Virus record (IMG/VR): IMGVR_UViG_3300028591_000091
DNA from: an uncultured virus (IMG/VR IMGVR_UViG_3300028591_000091)
Taxonomy: Duplodnaviria > Heunggongvirae > Uroviricota > Caudoviricetes
Direction: 5' to 3' (one strand)
Length of the DNA stretch: 64,000 nt
A model generated the notes under the pieces. The model saw only the letters and a program-made list of their open reading frames with translations. It ran no database searches and had not been told where the DNA came from. Both the position numbers and the translations under genes were made by a program. The stretch's first letter is position 1, and each line of letters starts with the position of its first letter. Positions 16,192 to 63,062 of the stretch are shown one piece after another.

Positions 16192-18333
16192 TCAAAGTCC
16201 GGATTTTTTACTAAGTAATTCGAATCCATTTTTCTTATCTGAAGTAAGAATACCTTTAACTATAAAATACTGTTCAAGATCTGATGCTTTTGCCGTCTTC
16301 TGATAACCTAAACGCTCATATAAATTCTTTAAAGTGGATTTAATATCAGACTTAGTATATCGCTTACCAACTTCAAATATTTTATATATTTCTGAAGCTA
16401 CATCAATCGCTTTATTTGATATTTGTTTTACCCACTCTCTTTTTATTTCAGCCTCATTACAGCTAAACTGTTTTATAAAATCAGGACCAATTACTGTATA
16501 ATATTCTTTAAACTTTGGAGGAATTAACTCCAGGAATGAATCAATATCTTTTCTAGTAATTCCTTTAATAGACTCAAGCTCGACTAGCATTCTAAGCTTT
16601 TTTGTAGTATCCCTAACTCCATTAAACTCAATTGCCATATCACAAGCCTTTTGAGTAACTCCATCAATCCCTTCCTGATTTACTGCAGAAAATACTGTAA
16701 ATCTATCTTTATAGTCTATCTGCTGAACCTCAAAAGCTCTCATTTCAGATACCAACATTAGATTATTAAACACGGGCTCTAATCTAACTATTTGTCCTGT
16801 AGTCCAATTTCTTATTTCGGAAACCGCTACATAATCATCTTTATAGTGACAAAGCTTAGCTACTGTAAGATAATTTCTAGCCAAATTAAATTTATCTTCT
16901 GGTTTTGCTCCATCAAAAATTCTTAGAAGACTATTAGAGGTTTTTATTTTTTCATTTAACCTTTGATTAAATATTTCTTTCTCCAATAAATGTTTTTTAT
17001 CAGTACATCTAATAAACATGGTAGCTGAATTTTTCCAAGGATTTTCAATAAGTCTCTGTCTACCTAGTATTTGTTCCAAATCCATACTAATATCAACGGA
17101 GAGACAATTTATATTACTATCACTGAAGATAAAAGTCTTAGCATTTGTCGAATAAAAATCTGCCCCCAGGTATACAGTTCTTGTACAAAGAGTAAACATT
17201 TTATGTGGCTGACCAATTAAAGGAATTGAGCCAATTACATCATAATCTCTGGGAATAGTAGGATGCTTAGAAAGTCCCTCTGTTTCTTTCTTTAAAACAT
17301 CATTAAAAGCTTTTCTTAGTTTGGTTCGATTATCAGTTATCTGTGCACATATAATATTAACTTGATCTATATGAAGCATATTTGTTCTAATAACTTGACA
17401 AATTCCTTTTACTGAATTGAAAAACAAGACGGCTTCCCTAGATTCTATTAAATTTCCATCTTTATCAAGTCTAGTATCAAATTTATGATTTTTATAACTA
17501 TCTATTACTCTTTTTGCTTCTTCATTAAGAGATCTTGTAGTAAACTTAATATCAAGGTTTGGTTTTGTTACTCTTCCTGGATCTTCTATTTCCCAGTTTA
17601 AACGATAATAGGGTAAATTTTTAAACTCATCTAGCATCTCCAAATAATGATCTAACATTGGAGTAGCTGAAACAAAACATATTCTTTGAATCCCCTTCAA
17701 TTGTTTTAGTAACTCAATTTCTGCATCTGATTTAAATCTAGCGTCTATGAAAATGCTTTGAAATTCGTCTACTACTACTTGAAAGTTGTTAAGTATGTTT
17801 TCATATCCCAGATCACGATTTTTCTCATCATAATATAAGTGCTGAAGGCAGTCTTTAACATGTTTAAATGAATCATATGTCACTAAAATTTTTAGAGGTT
17901 TATGTGGAAAACGTGCTCTATGATTTTTTATAATTGTCCTAAATGAACTCTTAAGATTATCTAAATTTGTTAAAGTTTCTTTATTTCCCTCCACTAAAGT
18001 TGTTGCTTTTCTCTGGATTCCTTTTCTATCGTCTCCAACGTCAAGTTCATAATCTGTTGAAACTTCATTATCGTTTTGAAAATAATAAACATCCCCTACA
18101 TGTTGATCTAACTTGTTTTTTAATAGGAATCGACGAGGAGAAACCAGAATAACAGGATGAGGACAATTAATACAATATTCAGTAAACCCACAACCAGTTA
18201 ATTCTTTGTTCAAAATATGAGGAAAGTTATAATTCCAAATATCATATTCTTTCCATTTATTTTTCTTTGTCTCTGAATCAACCTCACCAACATACCTAAT
18301 TCCTTTAGGTACAATAATTTCATGTTTTTCCAT
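16192..18333 (-). CDS. SF2 helicase-like protein, copy A
   Basis: TGCGFT (degenerate Walker A), VTYDS, VVDEFQ, SATP, LGADF, QILGRQR; clear paralogue of 60135..62288. Confidence 0.8.
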   Translation of the reverse strand: MEKHEIIVPKGIRYVGEVDSETKKNKWKEYDIWNYNFPHILNKELTGCGFTEYCINCPHPVILVSPRRFLLKNKLDQHVGDVYYFQNDNEVSTDYELDVGDDRKGIQRKATTLVEGNKETLTNLDNLKSSFRTIIKNHRARFPHKPLKILVTYDSFKHVKDCLQHLYYDEKNRDLGYENILNNFQVVVDEFQSIFIDARFKSDAEIELLKQLKGIQRICFVSATPMLDHYLEMLDEFKNLPYYRLNWEIEDPGRVTKPNLDIKFTTRSLNEEAKRVIDSYKNHKFDTRLDKDGNLIESREAVLFFNSVKGICQVIRTNMLHIDQVNIICAQITDNRTKLRKAFNDVLKKETEGLSKHPTIPRDYDVIGSIPLIGQPHKMFTLCTRTVYLGADFYSTNAKTFIFSDSNINCLSVDISMDLEQILGRQRLIENPWKNSATMFIRCTDKKHLLEKEIFNQRLNEKIKTSNSLLRIFDGAKPEDKFNLARNYLTVAKLCHYKDDYVAVSEIRNWTTGQIVRLEPVFNNLMLVSEMRAFEVQQIDYKDRFTVFSAVNQEGIDGVTQKACDMAIEFNGVRDTTKKLRMLVELESIKGITRKDIDSFLELIPPKFKEYYTVIGPDFIKQFSCNEAEIKREWVKQISNKAIDVASEIYKIFEVGKRYTKSDIKSTLKNLYERLGYQKTAKASDLEQYFIVKGILTSDKKNGFELLSKKSGL

Positions 18334-18441
18334 ATCATTATAAATTTTATTAAATAACTGAGAGTCTGGGCTTTGCCACAGTCTCTCGTAAAATCAGCTA
18401 ACGCAGATTTTTAATTTTATATTTTCTTATTCTTTTCAATA

Positions 18442-18831
18442 TGAGTCGAGAACATATAATCACACCTATAAGAGTTTTAATTCTTTTGAAAAGAGTTTTA
18501 TTAATTTAAGATTAAATATGAGTACAACCTATAATGACGTTATAAATTAAAAAATAATAAAATTAGGTAGTCTTTCAATTTTCATGATCGTAACGTTAGT
18601 GACCATCGGGAACGTAGTGGAGATCATTAGAAAATCGAGAGAGTAGGGGTTCGTAGCGTAATGTAACGGAATTATTGAGCTTTAGCGAAATAATGAAGTG
18701 AAATAGCGAAGTGGCCATGGGAAGGCCCTACTCTCTATGAAAGTACTGTTTATCTTGTTATCACCATTAAGGCGAAGCCGTGGTGTTTTGTTATAAACAG
18801 TGAGAGTTATAGAAAGCAAATTCTCGGCTCA
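18442..18831. other. Conserved structured non-coding element upstream of helicase-like copy A
   Basis: Motifs and covarying stems shared with 59647..60036; flanking inverted repeat TGAGTCGAGAA/TTCTCGGCTCA. Confidence 0.7.
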
Positions 18832-18866
18832 CCCATGTTTTAGATAAAAATAAAGAAGAAATTTAA

Positions 18867-19796
18867 TTATTTCTTCTTCTTTAACCTCTTTACAAAACTT
18901 TCTCCAAGAATTGGTCCTCGTTTTTCATTATCTTCTATTGTATCTATTCTCATCCAATAGTCTCTTGTATTCACATAAACCTTACTTCCAACTATTACTG
19001 ATTCTCCTATTCCTTTTCCTAATACCAGTCTTTTTTCTATCGTAGCGCTTATAATTTTGCATTCTATTCCGAGAACTATGGCTTTAGCTCCTGGATTTGG
19101 CGACATTCCTAATATAAAATTTTCTATATTATCTGCAGTATTATCCCAATCTATCCAAGTATCAGCCTCTGTCACTCTAGGTGCTTTCTTTTCTTTTCCC
19201 GTTAGTTTCTGATATACCCCTTTACCTCCTTCCTCAATTATTTTTTTAACAGTATCTATACAAAAGGTAGGAATTTTTGTATAGAATAGATCAGAAAGGA
19301 AAGATCGATTGTCAATTTTTTCATTTATTGGAATTGTTGTCTGACGTATGATTTTTCCTGTATCTATTCCAGAATCTATCCAATGTGAAGTTAATCCTGT
19401 CCGCGTTTCCCCATTTATTATAGCCCATCTTGTGGGTTCTGGTCCTCTATAATCAGGGAGTAGTGATGCATGAATATTAAATGTCCCTAATTTTGGAAAT
19501 GTGTATATCTCTTCTGGCAGGATATCATAAGACAAAACAATTCCTAAGTTTGGTTTTTCTTCTTCCAAAACTTTCTTCAGCTTAGGATCTTTTGGGCTTT
19601 TCACTCTTATTATTTTAGAACCATAATCTAGTGCTAATCTTTTAAGCCTAACAAATCCAAGTTCTTCGAGAGTTGTAGTTGTTATTATTAATCCTACATC
19701 ATATCCGTCCAACAATAATGCATTTAAAGTCAGAATAGAAAGACTCGTATTTGTATAAAAAACTATTTTAAGATTTTCTTTAATCATATTTTGCAT
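18867..19796 (-). CDS. fmt: Methionyl-tRNA formyltransferase-like protein
   Basis: FNIHASLLPDYRG, AIINGETRTGLT, DSGIDTGKII, IDW, PNPGA. Confidence 0.85.
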   Translation of the reverse strand: MQNMIKENLKIVFYTNTSLSILTLNALLLDGYDVGLIITTTTLEELGFVRLKRLALDYGSKIIRVKSPKDPKLKKVLEEEKPNLGIVLSYDILPEEIYTFPKLGTFNIHASLLPDYRGPEPTRWAIINGETRTGLTSHWIDSGIDTGKIIRQTTIPINEKIDNRSFLSDLFYTKIPTFCIDTVKKIIEEGGKGVYQKLTGKEKKAPRVTEADTWIDWDNTADNIENFILGMSPNPGAKAIVLGIECKIISATIEKRLVLGKGIGESVIVGSKVYVNTRDYWMRIDTIEDNEKRGPILGESFVKRLKKKK

Positions 19797-26246: not shown

Positions 26247-26326
26247 TTTATATTGGTTAAAGAAAAGAGAACCAGATAATTTAATATCTAGTTTCTCTAT
26301 TCAAATTTTCTATTATTCTCTCACAG

Positions 26327-26908
26327 TTAAGGATTTGAGGTCATCGTAAGCGCATTTTTCCAATTAGTGAGAAAATCAGGTCCTTCAATACTCGCTATTA
26401 ATTCTAAAGAATATGCTAATTGTAAGAGACAATCTTTACATAAACATACACTTGATTCTTTAGACATAAAAGCTAAGGTTTCATCTTCTAGGTCCAAAGT
26501 TTTATCTTGTGATCCTATATAATAAACAGTCTTTCCACAAATTGGGCACCTATCTTCCCCCTCTCCTGCTACAGAACTTATTATCTCTGGTTTTTCTATA
26601 AAAGCATGCATAAGATGTCTCATAAATCTTCCATATTGAAGACTCCTATATGCCTCTACTAAAATACAAGCTTCTTCCGGATTTTTAATTAATAAACCTT
26701 TGGGGTCTATTCCATGAGTTTCCCTGTATTCTGAAATTATACTTGGTAACTCATAGTCTCCAATTTTTCTAGGATAACAATAGGAATAGATTAAAAGTTT
26801 ATCTATTTCTCCTTCAATCTTTTGTGAGTTTTGTATTAGTTCTCTTCCCCTATCAGAATCAATATTATTCTTTAAAAGATAGTCAGTAAATATTTTTAAA
26901 TCAGCCAT
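26327..26908 (-). CDS. Hypothetical Zn-finger protein
   Basis: CPICG ... CKDC. Confidence 0.75.
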   Translation of the reverse strand: MADLKIFTDYLLKNNIDSDRGRELIQNSQKIEGEIDKLLIYSYCYPRKIGDYELPSIISEYRETHGIDPKGLLIKNPEEACILVEAYRSLQYGRFMRHLMHAFIEKPEIISSVAGEGEDRCPICGKTVYYIGSQDKTLDLEDETLAFMSKESSVCLCKDCLLQLAYSLELIASIEGPDFLTNWKNALTMTSNP

Positions 26909-28676: not shown

Positions 28677-28970
28677 ATGAATAAGAATCAAAGAGTAGTA
28701 TTATTCCGCTCAATTATTAAAATTTTATTTGTATTTGTAGTCATTTCTTATCTTTTATGGCTAGGATGGAACATTTTTGTAGTTAAAGAATTAGGAGTAG
28801 GAAATATTATAGAACTAAAAAGGATTTGGGTTTTTGGTTTCCCTACATTAGTATTATTTTACCTTCTTCGTCTTTTTAGTCCTTATTGGATGATTTTTAT
28901 AAAACTTTTCGATTTTGTTTTCTATTCCCTTCTTTGGTTTGGATGGTTAAAATTAATTGAATGGCTGTAA
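28677..28970 (+). CDS. Membrane protein
   Basis: Three hydrophobic segments. Confidence 0.65.
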   Translation: MNKNQRVVLFRSIIKILFVFVVISYLLWLGWNIFVVKELGVGNIIELKRIWVFGFPTLVLFYLLRLFSPYWMIFIKLFDFVFYSLLWFGWLKLIEWL

Positions 28971-29079
28971 AACCTATTATAACATCTTCCTTTGGGTTGA
29001 TGTTATATTTTATTTAAATTAATAAAACTCTCCTGTATAAGCTTAATCTCCTTAATAGTGTGAATTAAACTTAAACACA

Positions 29080-29766
29080 ATGAAAACAAGACAAGAAATA
29101 TTGAAAGAGAAGTATGGATTTAATAAAGGTTCATACAAATACGTTCCTAGAGGCGCTGAAATCTTAAAAATGATTGGGCAAAATGTAATTAAAGTTGAGT
29201 ATGATAAAAAAGAAGATGGTACTTGGAATACTAAATTCGGACCAGCTCTTTTAGTGTCAGTTTCAGATTTTGATCCAATTAATATGTCTTATAAAGCTGT
29301 CTATCAAGAGGTAGGTAAAGAGGAAACTGAGGAATTCACGATGATACCAGAAGGATATTCCTGGGCGGATTCAGAAAATGTATCTCATATAATTCGTCTT
29401 CTTCCTGGCTCTATGCATTGTCAACTTATGGAAGATGAATTATTTTATGAAAGATTAAAAACTTTATGGGAAACTAGACCAACCTTAGATTTTATTGCTC
29501 TCACTGGTTTGGCTAGTTCTAAAGACAAGGATACAAGTTTAAGATATTCACGTCACTTAGCTTGTCTGATTAAATTAGAAGATGAAGAAGATGTACTATA
29601 TTTTAGAATCCACAAACTCAATCTGAAACATAAATCAGGAAAAGACTATGCACTTTCTTTGTGGGATGGTGATGATAATTCAATAAGGGCTCTTATTAAG
29701 TCTGATGAAAAGGAATATAATTTTGAACTTGGAATAGGAAAATTTAAAATAATTGATTTGTGTTAA
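29080..29766 (+). CDS. Hypothetical protein
   Basis: ORF after promoter motif. Confidence 0.8.
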   Translation: MKTRQEILKEKYGFNKGSYKYVPRGAEILKMIGQNVIKVEYDKKEDGTWNTKFGPALLVSVSDFDPINMSYKAVYQEVGKEETEEFTMIPEGYSWADSENVSHIIRLLPGSMHCQLMEDELFYERLKTLWETRPTLDFIALTGLASSKDKDTSLRYSRHLACLIKLEDEEDVLYFRIHKLNLKHKSGKDYALSLWDGDDNSIRALIKSDEKEYNFELGIGKFKIIDLC

Positions 29767-36069: not shown

Positions 36070-36550
36070 AAAAAAAATTCATTCTGTGATTCCCTCCTTA
36101 ATAAATCAGAAACGAATTTCTAAGTTTTCAGGTGGGCAGAACATACCATTACTAATCATACCTTGTTTTACATATACCCTAATAAAAGAATATAGCTACA
36201 CAACAATATAAGTTTCACAGCTCAGGATTTAGCTTCTTAACTTTAGTAGTACCTAGACGACCGAACCACGATGAGGTACCTGAGATAACCCGGTCGATAG
36301 TAGTAGGGTGTTGGAATTTTATTTAATCGTCTTAATATAATTAATTTCCTTTAATCATTATCTAAATTATAACTACCGTCGATTGTTGAACCTGAGATAC
36401 GCACCTGAGAATTATAGGAATCTTCTACGTATATAATATAAATTTAACTCATAATCTTAACTAATTTATATTTATTCTAAATTCCTCAAGTAATTTATAA
36501 TTAATCTATTTATTTATAATAATATATCACATAGTTTTGGCCAACTACCC
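36070..36550 (-). ncRNA. Candidate ~480-nt non-coding RNA
   Basis: Promoter nearly identical to the tRNA-operon promoter at 36551-36572; terminator-like hairpin + U-run at ~36070-36120; no long ORF. Confidence 0.45.
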
Positions 36551-36640
36551 CACATTATTAAGGATTTAAGGGCTTTCTATTTCGCGGAGTTTATAGGACA
36601 AAAACCTTATTTATGTATTATAATTAAATAATTTAAAGTT

Positions 36641-39960: not shown

Positions 39961-39967
39961 ACTTTAT

Positions 39968-39990
39968 CACATTATTAAGGATTTGAGGGC
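39968..39990 (-). promoter_or_regulatory. Promoter of the tRNA operon (representative of the genome-wide motif)
   Basis: CCCTCAAATCCTTAATAATGTG a few nt upstream of tRNA-Leu. Confidence 0.65.
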
Positions 39991-40067
39991 TTAAGGTTTT
40001 CTTGTATTTTTTCTCTCCCGCATTCCCTCAAACACCTTATATATGAAATTCTGGTTTAATAAGAAAC

Positions 40068-56556: not shown

Positions 56557-57453
56557 ATGATAACAAAAATAATACTTAATAATTTATATGGAAGAAAAGA
56601 AATTAATGTATCGGTATCACAAAAACTATTTGACTATAAAGCCACATTCTCGGAATTGGAAGAACTTAGAGATATTATTGAAATAATTAAATCTATTCAA
56701 AATGTTTTTAAGAATGAAATTAATATAAAAATTCCATCACAGTATTATTCTTTTTCTGGATCAAAAGAATCCTCTATTGAAATACAAATGATTTGGAACG
56801 AAAAAACTTATACATACCTCTTAGTTTTTGTGGACTCTACTATTTGTATGGAAACTTTATTAGAAGGTAAATCATGGATCTTCTCTAAACTAATAGATAA
56901 TCCAGACTTTGCCTTTAATCCTTCCTATCTTAATGAAAAAGGTAAGAAATTCTATGAAATATATAAAAAAGTTCCTTCTATAAGTCTTCTATTCTGTTTT
57001 AATCCGGGGGAAGAATTATTAAATGAAATCAAAAATATTATAATAATAGATGATTGGTGGAATATTCCCTGCCATCAAGAGTTTGTGAAACGGTTTGAGA
57101 CTACATTTCCAGATCTTTCCTACAATAAATTGATAAATGAGATGATAAATAAGTTTGGTTTTTCATCAGAATATAAAAAATTAAATGAAGATAATAAATC
57201 ACTTTTATTATCTTCTATAAAATCAGATATAACGATAAACATACTTGATTCAGGGTCTGGGTTTGTATGGCTCAGTAGAATATATCCACTAATGGTAGCT
57301 TCTAAAAAAGAAAATTTATTAATGATATCTTCTATTCCTTATGATTTTCATCTTCATCCAATCCTAGGTAAAAAATTAATGACCTGGTTTTTAGAAGATA
57401 ATAATAATTTAATTATAGGAAAATTATCTAATATTTTATTGAAAAATATTTAA
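56557..57453 (+). CDS. Degenerate ABC/AAA_21-type ATPase-like protein
   Basis: MITKI.L.N start, DSGSGF signature-like motif, HLHP.L after an eroded Walker B; no Walker A. Confidence 0.45.
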   Translation: MITKIILNNLYGRKEINVSVSQKLFDYKATFSELEELRDIIEIIKSIQNVFKNEINIKIPSQYYSFSGSKESSIEIQMIWNEKTYTYLLVFVDSTICMETLLEGKSWIFSKLIDNPDFAFNPSYLNEKGKKFYEIYKKVPSISLLFCFNPGEELLNEIKNIIIIDDWWNIPCHQEFVKRFETTFPDLSYNKLINEMINKFGFSSEYKKLNEDNKSLLLSSIKSDITINILDSGSGFVWLSRIYPLMVASKKENLLMISSIPYDFHLHPILGKKLMTWFLEDNNNLIIGKLSNILLKNI

Positions 57454-57609
57454 CCGTCTATTTTCGTCTGAAACCCTTATATATATAGAAAAACTATTGT
57501 GGACAAACCAATAGTCCAGTATGGTTTGTTTTGTTAACTTTGGGGATGGATAGAAAGAGGAGATCCGTCCCCTTTTTTTTATTTTTGGAAGGCTGAAACC
57601 CTTATACGT

Positions 57610-57683
57610 GTGATATATTCTGTTTCATAATAAAATAATGTTTTGGGAGAGTACGGTTTGAGAAAAATAGTACTCTCTTTTTT
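57610..57683 (+). ncRNA. Small RNA unit 2 (variable 5' + conserved hairpin)
   Basis: GAGAGTAC-GGTTTGAGAAAAATA-GTACTCTC-TTTTTT. Confidence 0.6.
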
Positions 57684-57717
57684 CTTCCGTCTATAAAACG
57701 CCGAAAGCCTTATTTAT

Positions 57718-57776
57718 GTTATTAGATTTGAAGGTTATATTGGGAGCGTCGTTTGTGAAAATAGCGCTCCTTTTTT
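57718..57776 (+). ncRNA. Small RNA unit 3
   Basis: GGAGCG-TCGTTTGTGAAAATAG-CGCTCC-TTTTTT. Confidence 0.6.
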
Positions 57777-57799
57777 ATCGCCTCAAATCCTTATATATA

Positions 57800-57873
57800 T
57801 ATATTGTATAGATGAATTATCTTTAATTAATTGTGGAAGAGTACGGTTTGTGAAAATAGTACTCTTTTTTTTT
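57800..57873 (+). ncRNA. Small RNA unit 4
   Basis: AAGAGTAC-GGTTTGTGAAAATA-GTACTCTT-T run. Confidence 0.6.
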
Positions 57874-58153
57874 CTTACGATTATTTTCACCTCAAATCCT
57901 TATATATGTAGAAAAATCTTGATATAGATTTGAACTACAAGATGTAAAAGTAACGCGCAAAAGAGTTTGGTCTCTTATGCCGATCAAGAGTTGAAGTTTC
58001 GCACACAAACTAAAACTTTACTTTAACATCTCACCTTAAAATCGAGGCAAAAAGTGTGTTTAAGGGTTGACCGTCTGAAAAAGGCTGAAACCCTTATATA
58101 TGTAATAATATTTTAGAAACAATTTATTTATTAACAATTCAAATCAAGGACTT

Positions 58154-58393
58154 ATGTATAACGAAGAAAACAACACAGTGAGTGTTAACGAACCTATGAC
58201 GGTTCAAGTAGAGAACAAGGAGTCAATGGCTGAAAAAGTCAAAATGGTTATGACGAACAAGAATGTCTTGGTTGGACTCGGCACAATTATTGTAGCAGGA
58301 GCAGTCTATTACGGATATCGTTTCTGGAAAGCTCGCAAAGCTGCTGCGCCGTGCAACAACCAGAACGACAACAAAGAGAACGTGACTAAATAA
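58154..58393 (+). CDS. Small single-TM protein
   Basis: VLVGLGTIIVAGAVYYGYRFWK; own promoter and terminator (~58410-58455). Confidence 0.75.
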   Translation: MYNEENNTVSVNEPMTVQVENKESMAEKVKMVMTNKNVLVGLGTIIVAGAVYYGYRFWKARKAAAPCNNQNDNKENVTK

Positions 58394-58499
58394 ACACGAC
58401 TCCATAATTCAGGGGATGGCCACCATTAAGGTCGTCCCTTTTATTTTTTTTTTTGAAAAAGAAAGAACTTAGAAATTATACCTAAGCTCTTTTTATTTT

Positions 58500-59311
58500 T
58501 TATGTCCATTCATTATCTAGTCTAAAAAAATTGGACTGACATGGGCCTACCACTTTTCCATCCTCCGTTCTAAAAAGTCGTAAACAATATCTGATTGGGT
58601 CTATATTTCTTGCTCTTATGTTTATTTGAATAGACCCCTTGTTTGTTATTACTATTTTCTTCATGCCTCGTTTATCTTCATCTTCTATAAAATTAACTTC
58701 TATTCTATAAACCCGATAAAAGAAATCAAGGGCCGGTTCTTTTCCATCCCAACCGAGGGCAGCTAATTTTAATATTTTCATTGTTAAGTCCATTCTGTTT
58801 CTTCTTTTAATGTCTTTGTAAAAATAGAAGTACTAGGACCTACCACTTTTCCATCCTTCATTTCAAAAAACTCTAACATTGTTTTCAGAACTTCTTTCAT
58901 AAGAATATATTTAGATCGTTCATCTTGATTCCTTACGCTTATCGATATAAATTTTGATAATTCTACATGATCTAAAATGATATATGATTCAAGAAGATCT
59001 CCATTACCCCCGGATATCATGCATCCTTGATAATGATGACGAGTATATGAGATATTATACTCAAACTCCATCCAATCTATTATCTCTCTAATATCATTTG
59101 GTCCTGTATAACCAAGATCAACCACTTTTAGCCAAATTTCTTCTTCTGATATCATAAAGAAATCAGAATCTGTTTCTTTTATTGATTCTAATATCCAAAA
59201 ATAATTATTAACCTCAGGATCAAAGTATAATGATTTGTCCGAATTAAATAATAGTTCATTCATATCTTCTTTTGATAAACAATAAATTCTTTCCCTAATA
59301 TGATACTTCAT
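58500..59311 (-). CDS. Two paralogues (58500..58793, 58784..59311)
   Basis: Shared DGKVVGP..S.F and terminal EWT. Confidence 0.7.
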
Positions 59312-59622
59312 TTTTTATCCGTTAAAAAGTAGAAATAATGTTGTATACTATCTATTATTAATTCTTTCAAATACCCTCCTACTTCTATTTGAATTGTCTT
59401 TAATATTTCAACATTTTTTGATTCTTTAATCTCTTTTTTAGAAATATACCAATCAAAATTATAGGTTAAAGTTCTTATAATCTGTTTCGTTTTGTAAAGA
59501 GTCTTTCCCTCTAAAGTACCATAAATAATAAATCTATTAATAGATTTGGTACTAATCCCATAAAATATTAAATCGTTAAATTCATCATATTTAACTCTAA
59601 ATTTAAAAAATTCTATTATCAT
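59308..59622 (-). CDS. Hypothetical protein
   Basis: ORF a few nt after CCTTATATTTG. Confidence 0.65.
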   Translation of the reverse strand: MIIEFFKFRVKYDEFNDLIFYGISTKSINRFIIYGTLEGKTLYKTKQIIRTLTYNFDWYISKKEIKESKNVEILKTIQIEVGGYLKELIIDSIQHYFYFLTDKK

Positions 59623-59646
59623 TTCTCAAATATAAGGCAATCAAAG

Positions 59647-60036
59647 TTTGACAGTTGAGAGGCTATAATTATCAAGGTTATAAAAGCTGTAATGGAAATG
59701 CTTTATTCGTTATTTAGACAAAGCTAAATAACTACGTTTACACAAAGCATAGTTCTGAGGTTAAGCCTTCCCGTGGCCACTCCAAAGTTGTCCAGAAATT
59801 ATTCGTTAACACTCATAATTTTGGTCAGACTTTATCGAACCCTTAACCTCTCAATTTCAATTCCCCTTCCACTACGTTACAGGGTAAGAAATTGAAAGAT
59901 TCCCCTATTCCTATTTTCCTATTTTTTCAGGCTATATTAGATCTAACAAAATTCTCAAGTTAAAATTAGGAAAACACACCTCATAAAGGCTTAACGCCTT
60001 ATGAGTGTAGTTAATAAAGGCTTCTCAACTGTCAAA
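59647..60036. other. Conserved structured non-coding element upstream of helicase-like copy B
   Basis: Flanking inverted repeat TTTGACAGTTGAGA/TCTCAACTGTCAAA; core motifs shared with 18442..18831. Confidence 0.7.
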
Positions 60037-60134
60037 AAGTAAGTGTTGTAGAAACCTTAAAATACACGAAGTGGATTTTACGAGAGACTGAGGCATAAGC
60101 CCAGACTCTCAGTTATTTAATAAATTATAATGAT

Positions 60135-62288
60135 ATGGAAAAACATAAAATTATTGTACCTAAAGGAATTAGGTATATTGGCGAAAAGAAAGATAATGGA
60201 GAATATCTATGGAATACATTTAGACTAGAAAATTATAAAGGTCCTTATATTCTAAACAAAACTCTTACAGGTTGTGGATTTACCGAATATTGTCTTACAA
60301 ACGATCAAGATATAATTTTAATATCTCCTCGTCGATTTCTTCTTGAAAATAAAGAAGATCAACATAAAAATGAAGTTTATTATTTCAGAAATGATAATGA
60401 AGTTTCCGTTGATTTTGAATTTGATGTAGAGAAGGATGATATCAAAGCTATTCAGGAAAAAGCAGAAGAAAGTGAAGAATCTAAAAATAAAACTTTAGAA
60501 AACTTAGAATATATTAAAGGAAAACTTAGATCTGCATATTCTGATTTTAAAAGAGAAAATCCTAAGAAAGGTTTTAAGGTACTAGTTACTTATGATTCTT
60601 TCAAGCATGTAAAAGACGTTTTTAAGAATATTCCAAAAAATGAAGAAGGAGATAGCACAGAATTATTGGAAACAGAATTTGATAACTTCTTTTTAGTGGT
60701 TGATGAATTTCAATCAATCTTCATAGATGCTAAATTTAAATCTGAAGCTGAAATTGAGTTACTAAAACAATTAGAAGGAGAGAATAATCTTTGTTTTGTC
60801 AGCGCTACTCCAATGTTAGATCGTTATTTAGAAATGTTGGATGAATTTAAGGATCTACCCTATTATGAGCTGGATTGGTCAACAGAAGATCCAGGAAGAG
60901 TAACAAAACCTAAATTAGATATCAAATTTACAAGAAATCTGAATGAGGAAGCTAAAGCTGTAATTCATAGCTATAAAAATGGTAAATATGATATTAGAAT
61001 TAATTCGAACACTAAAGAGGTGATAGAATCTAAAGAGGCGGTCTTATTCTTCAATTCGGTAGCTGGTATTTGTCAAGTAATACGAACTAATAGATTACAC
61101 CTGGAAGATTGTAATGTGATTTGTGCTGATACTACTAAAAACAGTGAAGTGGTTAGGAAAGCTTTTAATGAGGTTTTAAAGAAAGAAGCAGAAGAAAAAG
61201 GATTAACTCCTAAATATTTTAAAAAGACAGATAAACTAATAGGTAGGATTCCAGTCAAAGGAGAACCCCACAAAATGTTTACTTTTTGTACTAGAACTGT
61301 ATACCTTGGAGCAGATTTCTATTCCACTAACGCTAGAACTTTTGTGTTCAGTGATGCTAACATTGATTGTCTTTCTGTAGACATATCAATGGACTTAGAA
61401 CAGATACTTGGAAGGCAGAGATTAATAGAAAACCCTTGGAAAGATTACGCTAAGGTTTTCATAAGAACTCTGTCTAAAAAGAATGTTATAACTTCTGATA
61501 GGTATTATGCTAAGTTAAATGGGAAAAAAAGGACAACCGAAAACCTTCTAGCTTCATATATTGAAGTTGATCCTAGTAGAAGAAAAGATCTAGCCAGAAC
61601 TTATTTAAAGGTAGCTAAGATGTGTCATTATAAAGACGATTATGTATCAGTGAGAGTTATAAAAGATTGGAAGACGGGAGAGGTAAAAGAATTTATCCCA
61701 GAATTTAACAATCTTATGATGATTTCTGATATGAGAGCTTTCGAGGTTCAGCAAATAGACTATAAAGATAGATTTACAGTATTTTCTACAGTAAACCAGA
61801 ATGGATTTGAAGGTTCTACACCTAAATCACAAGAATTAGCTGAAAGGTTTAATAATATTGGAGACACTACTAAAAAATTAAGGATGTTAGTAGAAATTAG
61901 TGAAGATAAAACACTAATAGAAAAAGATATTGATTCTTTTCTAGAGTTGATTCCGCCAAAGTATAAAGATTATTTTCAGATAGTAGGTCCCGATATCATC
62001 AAAGCTTGTGGTTGTTTTGAATGTGAGGTGAAGAAAAGATGGAGGCAAGAAATTAAAGGAGATGATTATAATGAACAGGTAATTTCTAGGATGGGTGATT
62101 TATTCAAAGTAGGAAATAAATATTCAAAATCTGGTATAAAAGATTCTCTAAAAAAGTTATATCAAGAATTAGGATATAATAAGACGGCGAAAGCTACGGA
62201 CCTAGAAGTGTTGTATGTTATGAAAGCCATTAAGGTATTAGAAGAAGGTAAATGGGTACATGGCTTTGAAATATTAGGAAGGAGGTAG
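60135..62288 (+). CDS. SF2 helicase-like protein, copy B
   Basis: Same motifs as 16192..18333 with long identical blocks such as SVDISMDLEQILGRQRLIENPWK. Confidence 0.8.
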   Translation: MEKHKIIVPKGIRYIGEKKDNGEYLWNTFRLENYKGPYILNKTLTGCGFTEYCLTNDQDIILISPRRFLLENKEDQHKNEVYYFRNDNEVSVDFEFDVEKDDIKAIQEKAEESEESKNKTLENLEYIKGKLRSAYSDFKRENPKKGFKVLVTYDSFKHVKDVFKNIPKNEEGDSTELLETEFDNFFLVVDEFQSIFIDAKFKSEAEIELLKQLEGENNLCFVSATPMLDRYLEMLDEFKDLPYYELDWSTEDPGRVTKPKLDIKFTRNLNEEAKAVIHSYKNGKYDIRINSNTKEVIESKEAVLFFNSVAGICQVIRTNRLHLEDCNVICADTTKNSEVVRKAFNEVLKKEAEEKGLTPKYFKKTDKLIGRIPVKGEPHKMFTFCTRTVYLGADFYSTNARTFVFSDANIDCLSVDISMDLEQILGRQRLIENPWKDYAKVFIRTLSKKNVITSDRYYAKLNGKKRTTENLLASYIEVDPSRRKDLARTYLKVAKMCHYKDDYVSVRVIKDWKTGEVKEFIPEFNNLMMISDMRAFEVQQIDYKDRFTVFSTVNQNGFEGSTPKSQELAERFNNIGDTTKKLRMLVEISEDKTLIEKDIDSFLELIPPKYKDYFQIVGPDIIKACGCFECEVKKRWRQEIKGDDYNEQVISRMGDLFKVGNKYSKSGIKDSLKKLYQELGYNKTAKATDLEVLYVMKAIKVLEEGKWVHGFEILGRR

Positions 62289-62289
62289 A

Positions 62290-63062
62290 ATGTTTAAAAG
62301 AGAATTTAGAGATATGTTAGGAAGGGTAGTTAAAGTTGATGATATTTTAGTCTACTGTTCCCCTTTCGATGGTCTTCATGCTTTATTAGTAACCCAAGAA
62401 GATCCCGATGGTTTATTATATGTCAGTCCTTTAAAGTCGGATCGTTTAGATGAGGGTGAAGAATGGTTTCAGGCTTTTGATGCTCCTACTTATTGTTGGG
62501 ATATTCTAGAAAGAGCGATTAGACATATAAAAGTTAGTAGGAGATGTTTTCCAATAGATCTTTATAGTGATTATATTATTCTGGAAGATATAGATGAGAA
62601 AACGAAAATTGTAGGAACTTCAAGATTAGCAAAAATATGTTAGTACGTCATAAATCGAAAGCTTGTCCTGGTCATTATTATTACCGAGAAGAATCAGACC
62701 CAGACACTTGGTATTACGATAAATTTGGAAGAAAACCTAGACTTGGAGATTATTTTGTTTATACTCAGATAGACTCCAACGGTATTCATCATCTTCATTT
62801 TGGTGTGATCTATTTACAGAGTCATATCATAAAAGAGAGGGATCCGATAACTGGGAAACCTATATGGGTGATAACAATTCTTCATTATGCTAGAGTTCGT
62901 AGTTCACCTGTTCCACATAAAGGGGAGAAGTTAGTGAAAACTTTAGAAAATGGTTTGTCCTTATTTTCTCCTTTCTATGAATTAAGCAGTGTAAGATCTG
63001 AAAATGGGATTGTCCTTTTAAAGCCAGAGGTAGTAACTGGTGCTTTTCCGAATCTAAGATAA
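62290..63062 (+). CDS. Two hypothetical proteins (62290..62643, 62637..63062)
   Basis: Overlapping ORFs; both have D..GR....(D/G)D..VY. Confidence 0.7.

Follow-up and report, generated by a model that had tools for sequence, protein, structure and literature searches.

A covarying multihairpin element upstream of a helicase-like gene family in giant gut phages: a probable replication start site or undescribed structured RNA

The sso and ssi sites and the minus-strand origin of filamentous phages are folded stretches of single-stranded DNA, 150 to 300 nt long and fixed in orientation, whose conserved loops and covarying stems serve priming. Another system is described in PMC12543377: at OriS of herpes simplex virus 1 (HSV-1), an A/T-rich spacer lies between inverted boxes, and the strand, once unwound, folds into a hairpin with a loop of 3 nt, which is bound by a superfamily 2 (SF2) initiator. 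Primase-associated SF2-like helicases of phages and plasmids are, in the part of PMC5862659 that treats them, likened to UL9, the origin-binding protein of herpesviruses. A third group, comprising ARRPOF, GEBRO, and PAGEV, consists of covarying candidates that comparative genomics has turned up before helicase genes or within replicons and that are associated with replication functions, for which, as discussed in PMC5737381, single-stranded DNA and RNA are indistinguishable from the sequence. We analyzed a 64,000-nt stretch of the uncultured virus IMGVR_UViG_3300028591_000091 (Caudoviricetes), here called the window, in which two paralogous genes for a helicase-like protein, copy A and copy B, are each preceded by about 500 nt of noncoding DNA with a shared set of hairpins. 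This element and its gene form a cassette, in which the element is probably either a site where replication starts or a structured RNA that has not been described before, and our literature search found no described phage element of this helicase-linked kind that fits it.

The proteins of the two copies are 58% identical over a full-length alignment, and the elements before their genes have the same layout in gene orientation (Table 1): outer inverted arms (P0), a two-domain core (P1 to P3), an A/T-rich hairpin (P4), a promoter, a structured leader (P6 and P7), and the ATG. The original prediction had read an order of arm, core, promoter, arm, leader hairpin, and ATG before both paralogues, and each of these features is present where it was placed, including the outer inverted repeats of both copies. 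The two upstream regions can be aligned from the outer arm to the ATG; copy A repeats the order of copy B on the minus strand, with different stem sequences and the pairing retained. The alignment bears out the claim that the core blocks GCCTTCCC(A/G)TGGCCACT, CGAACCC, CCACTACGTT, and AAATTGAAAGA are kept in both copies, and the claim that the stems differ and still pair is best seen in P1 (Table 1). The outer arms of copy B span 25 nt each and are 84% complementary, and the sole occurrences of AGTTGAGA are these two inverted arm sites. The ATGCTTT/AAAGCAT stem of copy B is retained throughout the B group in the alignment, and the loop of its P4 hairpin holds the conserved motif TATATTAG, which resembles TTATTATAGG. 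A longer form of the element in relatives has a shorter P2 and, between P2 and P4, a further 100 to 350 nt of hairpins that covary. The GGCGAAGCC mini-hairpin, to which the prediction had drawn attention as an exceptionally stable fold of single-stranded origins, is present in copy A, where it is only one of several loops of the G-N-A and G-N-N-A types, closed by C-G, that are found on both strands.

The element recurs in relatives in a constant relation to the gene. We collected 160 homologue-bearing loci from viral and metagenome contigs, which together with loci collected earlier yielded 120 unique upstream regions. Twelve close relatives could be aligned across the full 500 nt, and a profile of the core matched 40 upstream regions, in all of which its distance from the gene falls into one class. 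When a covariance model was trained on 33 sequences and run on the window and 80 metagenome loci, it produced 44 matches at E values of ≤1, of which 43 lay upstream of a homologue on the same strand; the remaining one, elsewhere in the window (E = 0.48), was taken as chance. The model recovered members that had not been used to train it (L169, L184, L185, L201, L213, L216, and L218), and in 86 further loci it matched L050 (E = 1.4e-7) and L062 (E = 0.0015), along with six regions at E values of 0.1 to 1; three of these six lie upstream of the gene, and the other three, which lie downstream, are probably chance matches. The 15-mer CCTTCCCRTGGCCAC is confined in the window to the two element sites, even when 3 mismatches are allowed, and in an exact scan of viral contigs it hit 52 loci, only one of which (L050) had the stem and a neighboring homologue, the rest being chance.

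A simple descriptor of P1, which asks for the C-rich loop, an (A/G)CCC within 25 to 150 nt, and flanks with at least 7 complementary bases, behaved in the same way. On the gene strand, it was present in 47 of the 120 upstream regions, whereas the reverse complements gave 1 match in 120 and five shuffles gave none; in the window, on either strand, it found only the two reported sites, and across the 160 loci (927 kb) it found 50 gene-sense matches and one on the opposite strand. The 47 matches, two of which are doubtful (L164 and L065), comprise at least 15 distinct helix sequences with two G.T pairs in total.

The variation among these helices is compensatory. In the model alignment, P1 is perfectly Watson-Crick over 8 to 11 bp in all 37 analyzable members, which use 12 distinct strand pairs. 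RNAalifold returned no structure for a structure-blind MAFFT alignment of the 33 sequences, because its middle region is gapped; the stem pairs were hence named by hand, with controls. In that alignment, despite a shift of eight A-type rows by one column, 26 cells are doubly changed, compared with 7.1 ± 2.0 after shuffling (reached in 0 of 500 shuffles). A model-fitted alignment of 44 sequences, which is biased toward the structure by construction, gave 62 such cells versus 15.0 ± 3.1 (0 of 500), with double changes at 13 of 20 pairs, and slid controls all scored far lower. At P1b, a T-A pair is replaced by C-G in 8 of the 33 structure-blind rows with no intermediate, and the same pair is UA in 27, CG in 10, and AU in 3 sequences of the model-fitted alignment. 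P2 also covaries among the relatives. P4 is a stem of a T-rich and an A-rich strand in which the central 3 or 4 bases vary while complementarity is kept (CTT/AAG, CCT/AGG, GTT/AAC, ACAC/GTGT, CTCA/TGAG, and GTAA/TTAC); the structure-blind alignment has 30 doubly changed cells here versus 15.4 after shuffling (0 of 500), while the number of P4 pairs showing a double change in it (4 versus 3.8) is not above the shuffles. The word AGT(T/C)GAGA is common to the outer arms, whose flanks covary (e.g., TTTGACAGTTGAGA/TCTCAACTGTCAAA and TGAGCCGAGAACTTATC/GATAAGTTCTCGACTCA), so that duplexes of at least 10 were formed by own pairs in 36% of the sequences and by cross pairs in 12%; pairing of the arms is poor in several sequences (e.g., L141, L144, and L152). 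We also considered whether the arm word and the hairpin of the protein tail vary in form together; L145 and L148 have the same word and different tails, so at this level the two are not correlated in any simple way.

Chance or leftover similarity between paralogues is rejected as an explanation because the stems differ and nevertheless pair, in at least 15 variants. The element is a conserved, covarying, strand-folding cis element linked to the helicase-like family well above chance; it is always upstream of the gene, and its orientation is fixed. Absence of covariation and of a link to this protein family in other genomes had been named as grounds for giving up the original prediction, and collecting homologues and modeling their covariance uncovered both covariation and such a link. 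Two distant homologues in cultured phages also have a gene-free upstream region: in Psychrobacter phage D'Alembert (L057:2578-3925) and Acinetobacter phage Phab24 (L058:2935-3865), 0.9 to 1.3 kb of gene-free, A/T-rich DNA precedes the gene, with direct repeats about 100 to 125 bp apart and a divergent strand switch, and the D'Alembert copy lies beside the terminal repeat.

The block between P4 and the 3' arm reads (A)AAAC(T)C ... GCTGAAA(C/T)CCTTA(T/A)NNNTGT(A/G). The prediction had called it a promoter; a promoter-like block is indeed there, but it is not of the sigma-70 type, a scan of the element region for which gave hits at chance level only. It belongs instead to a phage-wide motif (AAAACTC ... 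GCTGAAAYCCTTAWNNNTGTR) that also stands before protein genes, small RNA units, and a cluster of tRNA-Leu, -Lys, and -Met. Four or five tiny gene-less units at 57453-58154 are likely small RNAs, each consisting of the motif (..GAAA(C/T)CCTTATATAT..), about 40 to 60 nt, and a G+C-rich hairpin with a T-run. Since the motif heads these terminator-ended units, it behaves as a phage promoter; being neither sigma-70 nor Bacteroidota-type, it may be recognized by a factor or polymerase that the phage encodes. A strict form of the pattern occurs once per cassette, 116 to 183 nt before the ATG, in 28 of 36 cassettes and is missing from the other 8, including copy B of the window, whose block was found by a profile; a profile located the block in 47 of the 120 upstream regions. 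As the 3' arm lies downstream of this promoter, the covarying structure extends across the promoter and does not fall within the mRNA of the gene.

The leader, in contrast, lies in that mRNA and has RNA-like features. P6 appears as CGC-GTTA-GCG, as CAC-GAA-GTG, or, with one U.G pair, as CUGC-G(C/U)A-GCGG; P7 changes from GAGAG/CTCTC to GAAAG/CTTTC; and some long-form leaders have C(UUCG)G loops. The last ~110 nt of the upstream region and the first codons are nearly identical between the window copies (60041-60175 versus 18293-18428) despite the 58% identity of the proteins. The same holds for L140 and L160, which lie on one contig: leaders are alike among the paralogues of a genome though the proteins are distant, which suggests gene conversion or a shared genome-specific factor. 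Among metatranscriptome contigs over 58400-62700, exact contigs of run X2 span the gene body and its neighbors and do not cover 59264-60127, and short contigs of relatives hold the leader and part of P1; since such contigs are assemblies in which DNA carry-over is possible and which break at repeat boundaries, we draw no inference on transcription from them.

The protein belongs to a very large family, with 5,616 members at E values of ≤1e-5 among the candidates scored and, in a separate search, 2,168 clusters at 50% identity (E ≤ 1e-3). Nearly all sources leave it without a name, the exception being a cultured-phage record that calls a distant homologue a DEAD-like helicase. Library scans assigned neither window protein to a Pfam, PHROG, or NCBIfam family, and searches of PDB sequences with single proteins and with a profile of the family gave nothing below an E value of 0.04. 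Invariant blocks resemble SF2 motifs II (DEFQ), III (SAT), and VI (QxxGRxxR), but the motif set is incomplete: the position of the Walker A motif GxGK(T/S) is occupied by TGCG[FY]T (TGCGFT in copy B) and in distant cultured-phage homologues by GVGGT and GCGAT, so that the lysine is absent family-wide. An invariant K stands four residues before this position. PF00270 (DEAD) was detected in one relative (P0220; E = 1.2e-5) at 25.5 bits, below the Pfam cutoff of 26, and in neither window protein at the gathering score; in an Atlas neighbor cluster, DEAD is found on 11% of the members. In a Pfam search of 31 members at E values of up to 1, PF02399 (Herpes_ori_bp) was not among the 25 families listed of 32.

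A C-terminal BT4734-like domain (PF08800), which PMC5862659, in the portion that deals with it, counts as one family of archaeo-eukaryotic primases (AEPs), was found with E values of 1e-13 to 1e-17 in 4 of 20 relatives scanned (P0219, P0220, P0248, and P0258), which are the longest of the 20 (937 to 967 aa), a set chosen for length. Genomes carry 2 to 5 helicase-like paralogues on phage contigs of 90 to 400 kb; the count of two given here is for the 64-kb window only. In many gut phage contigs of 350 to 400 kb, one paralogue lies 2 to 10 kb from the contig end (L079, L094, L112, L116, L117, L120, and L123), which could be a genuine genome end or an assembly-breaking repeat. At L001:5567-6151, at L003:5346-5843, and at ~30 loci with a match of ~3 kb, a second open reading frame downstream duplicates the last 150 to 200 residues of the protein, and the homologue of D'Alembert is followed by a gene with the annotation of an HNH endonuclease.

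On the basis of these observations, we tentatively favor the view that the cassette is a replication-initiation module, i.e., an origin-like cis element with its own gene for a helicase-shaped initiator that would be sequence specific. The protein, or a complex containing it, would recognize the inverted AGT(T/C)GAGA arms that bracket 340 to 600 bp; the A/T-rich P4 segment would melt, and the separated strands would fold into hairpins P1 to P4, whose conserved unpaired loops (CCTTCCC-NN-GGCCACT, GAACCC, TCCACTACGTTAC, and TTATTATAGG) might hold the bubble open or act as landing or priming sites. The embedded phage promoter would express the initiator and may also activate the site. That DNA rather than RNA is the folding molecule, that the protein binds the arms, and that the site acts as an origin are the parts of this proposal that we infer. 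It is suggested by the fact that the structure spans the promoter and the core has no promoter of its own, by the lack of a clear preference for one strand, by an SF2-like protein with a conserved C-terminal domain and, in some relatives, a primase fusion, and by the precedents of HSV-1 OriS and the primase-associated SF2-like proteins likened to UL9. The gene-free, repeat-bearing DNA before the D'Alembert and Phab24 homologues was also counted in its favor, and the BT4734-like fusions of relatives make the replication role proposed in the original prediction more plausible.

Several points weigh against such a module. We know of no double-stranded DNA phage origin that is a multihelix covarying structure, elements of that kind being mostly RNAs, and the present one is far more complex than the known origins of these phages. 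Two to five divergent initiator/origin pairs per genome is an unusual design. ATP-driven unwinding is doubtful because the Walker A lysine is absent, the window proteins have no primase domain (0 Pfam families), and no sequence similarity to UL9 or to any solved structure was detected. The GC skew tracks gene direction and has no independent origin signal. Finally, RNAalifold consensus energies are better for the antisense strand in 5 of 6 comparisons, with one tie, and a G.T pair persists in P2 in 9 sequences when the sense strand is read, both of which would equally suit an RNA.

The strand evidence as a whole is mixed. Between -480 and -40, counted from the promoter, the gene-sense strand has much C and little G (a C-rich region); the leader and coding regions show the reverse, and the skew switches at the promoter. 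With RNA parameters, raw folding energies favor the antisense strand in 32 of 33 sequences, and with DNA parameters they do so in 33 of 33; this we attribute largely to base composition, and an argument for antisense stability from raw energies was dropped, as the advantage nearly vanishes when each strand is compared with its own shuffles. Both strands fold better than their shuffles and to a similar extent (median z-scores of -2.7 versus -1.9 with RNA parameters and -3.7 versus -3.0 with DNA parameters; n = 12). Mismatches in P4 are 14 G.T versus 11 A.C, both kinds occur in the outer arms, and the P3 region, where stems were picked heuristically, has 2 G.T versus 14 A.C on the sense strand. 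The wobble evidence is mixed. The near balance of mismatches in P4 and the folding of both strands beyond their shuffles show no clear strand preference, as expected if both DNA strands fold. The expectation of a cis-acting structure in single-stranded DNA or RNA, in gene orientation, stood in that the element covaries and is linked to the gene, but the gene-sense strand is C-rich and its complement folds equally well or better.

A new class of large structured noncoding RNA, ~250 nt in the short form and up to ~600 nt in the long form and encoded beside the helicase-like gene, is the main rival explanation and somewhat less likely. Such an RNA would most likely be an antisense transcript from a host-type promoter, failing which a long transcript from upstream; its partner or target would be the protein or the mRNA. 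Multiple helices, unpaired loops that are conserved, and numerous compensatory changes are typical of structured RNAs, the long form adds further covarying hairpins, and large ornate RNAs such as ROOL are known from the rumen and from phages, according to the relevant part of bioRxiv 10.1101/2024.12.08.627333. The antisense strand of the C-rich region is G-rich, like the transcribed strands elsewhere in these loci, and flips exactly at the promoter; the A.C excess in P3 would be G.U on it; and a conserved antisense motif, TA(T/A)(A/T)AT, lies in the P4 loop, with a TT-rich hexamer 18 to 19 nt upstream. A start at that motif, however, would leave the covarying P4 and P0 outside the transcript. 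No phage-type promoter was found on the gene-sense strand between the upstream gene and the core in the 36 cassettes, nor did the antisense strand around the element yield one, and sigma-70-like sites are no more frequent than expected by chance. No canonical terminator was found after the core, unlike the situation in the small RNAs of this phage, so that the core has neither the phage promoter nor the intrinsic terminator that mark an independent small RNA gene. Further, the similar folding of the two strands relative to their shuffles and the lack of an Rfam family match even at E values of up to 10 speak against this explanation.

A device that regulates expression of the gene itself is unlikely. 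Here, the distal arm and the hairpins, as DNA or as read-through RNA, would hide or expose the promoter and the 5' end of the mRNA, in the manner of an autoregulatory operator pair or a long-range RNA switch. The 3' arm does lie 10 to 25 nt after the promoter, at the 5' end of the mRNA, with its partner site 340 to 600 nt upstream; in several relatives it has an alternative local pairing (e.g., TCTCGACTCAGTTCGAGA in L145); the promoter core is inside a hairpin in the B group; and the homogenized leaders of paralogues in one genome point to a shared factor acting in trans. The need for an elaborate, conserved P1-to-P4 structure of ~250 to 600 nt is unexplained by such a device, the promoter hairpin is conserved in one subgroup only, and the terminators of upstream genes, which in copy A and several relatives directly precede the 5' arm, oppose a read-through RNA.

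Least probable of these explanations, though only slightly behind the last, is a cis site of a mobile cassette, i.e., recombination or transposition ends or an invertible promoter segment acted on by the helicase-like protein or a phage recombinase. The cassettes do turn over. In L149, a whole unit of ~2.9 kb (L149:860-3790), comprising a terminator, arms, core, promoter, gene, and terminator, lies between homologues of the window genes 28677-28970 and 29080-29766, which in the window are adjacent with no cassette between them; the empty site (28970-29080) has a promoter block closely resembling that of the cassette. In L140 and L143, B-type cassettes precede homologues of the genes that follow copy A, and in L145 an A-type cassette precedes a homologue of the gene that follows copy B. 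This presence or absence and these swaps between loci show that the module is exchanged or lost as a unit, which gives indirect support to the mobility that the prediction had considered. The 2 to 5 copies per genome and the promoter flanked by inverted arms, as in invertons, would also fit. Nevertheless, the inverted arms bracket the noncoding part only and leave the gene outside, library scans of the helicase-like protein detected no transposase, HUH nuclease, or recombinase domain, and no solo elements without the gene turned up among the scanned loci. The L149 junctions have no obvious target-site duplication and consist of generic terminator and promoter blocks, which fits ordinary recombination between regulatory blocks.

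The window itself has 32% G+C and, in its gene content (a terminase-like protein, RNA ligase, NAD synthetase, nucleotidyltransferase, phosphoesterases, and three tRNAs), the look of a segment of a giant phage. The helicase-like gene is assigned in a protein collection to a contig of 173.5 kb, and the stretch is present in public sheep and bovine gut metagenome runs. The hairpin at 18847-18881 before copy A is weakly matched by terminator-like Rfam models.

Table 1. Positions of the cassette features and related sites in the window (slashes separate the two strands of a stem).
Feature	Position	Strand	Sequence or remark
Copy A gene	16192-18333	-	713 aa, 58% identical to copy B
Copy A leader (P6, P7)	18334-18415	-	Nearly identical to copy B leader
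Copy A outer arm P0, 3'	18442-18452	-	TTCTCGACTC; GAGTCGAGAA at 18443-18452
Copy A promoter block	18460-18507	-	
Copy A P4	18496-18562	-	TTTTATTATTTT/AAATTAATAAAA
Copy A core	18562-18747	-	Covariance model 99.6 bits, E = 7.5e-22; loops as in copy B, P3
Copy A P1	18726-18736 / 18638-18648	-	AGAGAGTAGGG/CCCTACTCTCT
Copy A P2		-	TCGATTTTC/GAAAATTGA, one G.T pair
Copy A 5' hairpin	18745-18801	-	ACTGTTTAT/ATAAACAGT around CACCA..TGGTG and GGCTTCGCC
Mini-hairpin GGCGAAGCC	18771-18779	+	GGCTTCGCC of the copy A 5' hairpin on the other strand
Copy A outer arm P0, 5'	18821-18831	-	GAGCCGAGAA at 18821-18830
Terminator of upstream gene (18867-19796)	18847-18881	-	A/T-rich hairpin and T-run directly before copy A element
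Phage-wide promoter motif (examples)	29016-29064, 58072-58105, 57589-57614		
Phage-wide promoter motif (examples)	26319-26365, 39966-39994, 36550-36592	-	
Copy B outer arm P0, 5'	59647-59671	+	TTTGACAGTTGAGAGGC...; contains family-wide word AGTTGAGA
Copy B 5' hairpin region	59696-59756	+	From arm to P1; ATGCTTT...AAAGCAT, inner GTTATTTAG/CTAAATAAC
Copy B core	59757-59905	+	Covariance model 154 bits, E = 2.8e-35
Copy B P1	59757-59765 / 59842-59850	+	GAGGTTAAG/CTTAACCTC
Copy B internal loop	Within core	+	CC opposite CC
Copy B P1b	59768-59770 / 59837-59839	+	TTC/GAA
Copy B conserved single-stranded loop		+	CCGTGGCCACTCC; family form CC(G/A)TGGCCACT(C/T)C
Copy B P3		+	Variable hairpin in core
Copy B P2	59851-59858 / 59888-59895	+	TCAATTTC/GAAATTGA, enclosing loop TCCACTACGTTAC
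Copy B core tail		+	AAGATTCCCC
Copy B P4	59914-59926 / 59962-59974	+	A/T-rich stem TTTTCCTATTTTT/AAAATTAGGAAAA, 35-nt loop
Copy B promoter block	59963-60011	+	GAAAACAC ... GCCTTATGAGTGTAG; found by profile
Copy B outer arm P0, 3'	60012-60036	+	GCTTCTCAACTGTCAAA; directly downstream of promoter
Copy B leader	60056-60134	+	P6, P7, then A/T-rich run to ATG at 60135; leader profile E = 1.4e-18
Copy B P6	60065-60073	+	CAC-GAA-GTG
Copy B P7	60082-60110	+	GAGAGACTG...CAGACTCTC (GAGAGAC...GACTCTC)
Copy B gene	60135-62288	+	717 aa, SF2-helicase-like; C-terminal domain conserved

The family described here is very large and mostly unnamed. From the covariation, one can predict the nucleotides that must pair and the loops that must stay single stranded, and both are tied to one protein that can be purified. 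If the folded molecule is DNA, the element would rank with the most complex folded-DNA origins on record; an RNA would instead be a new class of large structured RNA with a defined protein partner. With somewhat more caution than for the initiation module itself, we propose that giant phages of the rumen and gut may carry several private pairs of an ATPase-degenerate SF2-like protein and a multihairpin fold of the unwound strands, in which specificity would reside in a single-stranded DNA architecture of 300 to 600 nt under compensatory evolution, or else ornate RNAs that partner a helicase-like, primase-associated protein.

Comparison with known systems sets this cassette apart from most of them. 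Among Rfam 15 models, a covariance scan of the window found three tRNAs only at the gathering score, and matches at E values of up to 10 were scattered, subthreshold, and attributable to chance (the best with 23.9 bits against a cutoff of 56.8); the element is therefore not a member of ARRPOF, GEBRO, or PAGEV. The ssNA-helicase motif, a helicase-associated candidate that is reportedly uncertain as to RNA or single-stranded DNA, was set apart here through Rfam only. Nor does the cassette have the makeup of a DNA transposon, an IS200/IS605-like element, or an inverton, since no transposase or recombinase domain was found in the helicase-like protein and the arms bracket only the noncoding part. 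The sso and ssi sites differ in acting on replicons with single-stranded DNA intermediates and in not being paired with an SF2-like gene. With ROOL and GOLLD the element shares an origin in the rumen or in phages, a length of several hundred nucleotides, and many covarying helices, but it differs from them in having no Rfam match, a C-rich gene-sense strand, no promoter or terminator of its own that we could find, and a strict linkage to one family. The four long relatives that fuse a helicase-like body to a BT4734-like domain resemble the AEP primase-helicase proteins covered in PMC5862659; their order, helicase-like body and then primase instead of primase and then helicase, is unusual, and the window proteins differ in having no primase domain. 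Set beside UL9 and OriS, the protein has no detectable sequence similarity to UL9 and no Walker A lysine; the folded region measures 340 to 600 nt and has five or more helices instead of one 12-bp hairpin; and an embedded promoter and several divergent pairs per genome are peculiar to the phage cassettes. What the cassette shares with them is an SF2-type protein with a C-terminal domain, which in UL9 is the DNA-recognition domain; inverted arms, which in the phage are putative recognition sites, on either side of an A/T-rich segment, here at a spacing of 340 to 600 nt and, judging from the aligned sequences, with arms and P4 that covary; and a strand that, once unwound, would fold into a hairpin with a 3-nt loop of the G-A-A type, as at OriS, where PMC12543377 reports, in its account of this hairpin, that the initiator binds it.

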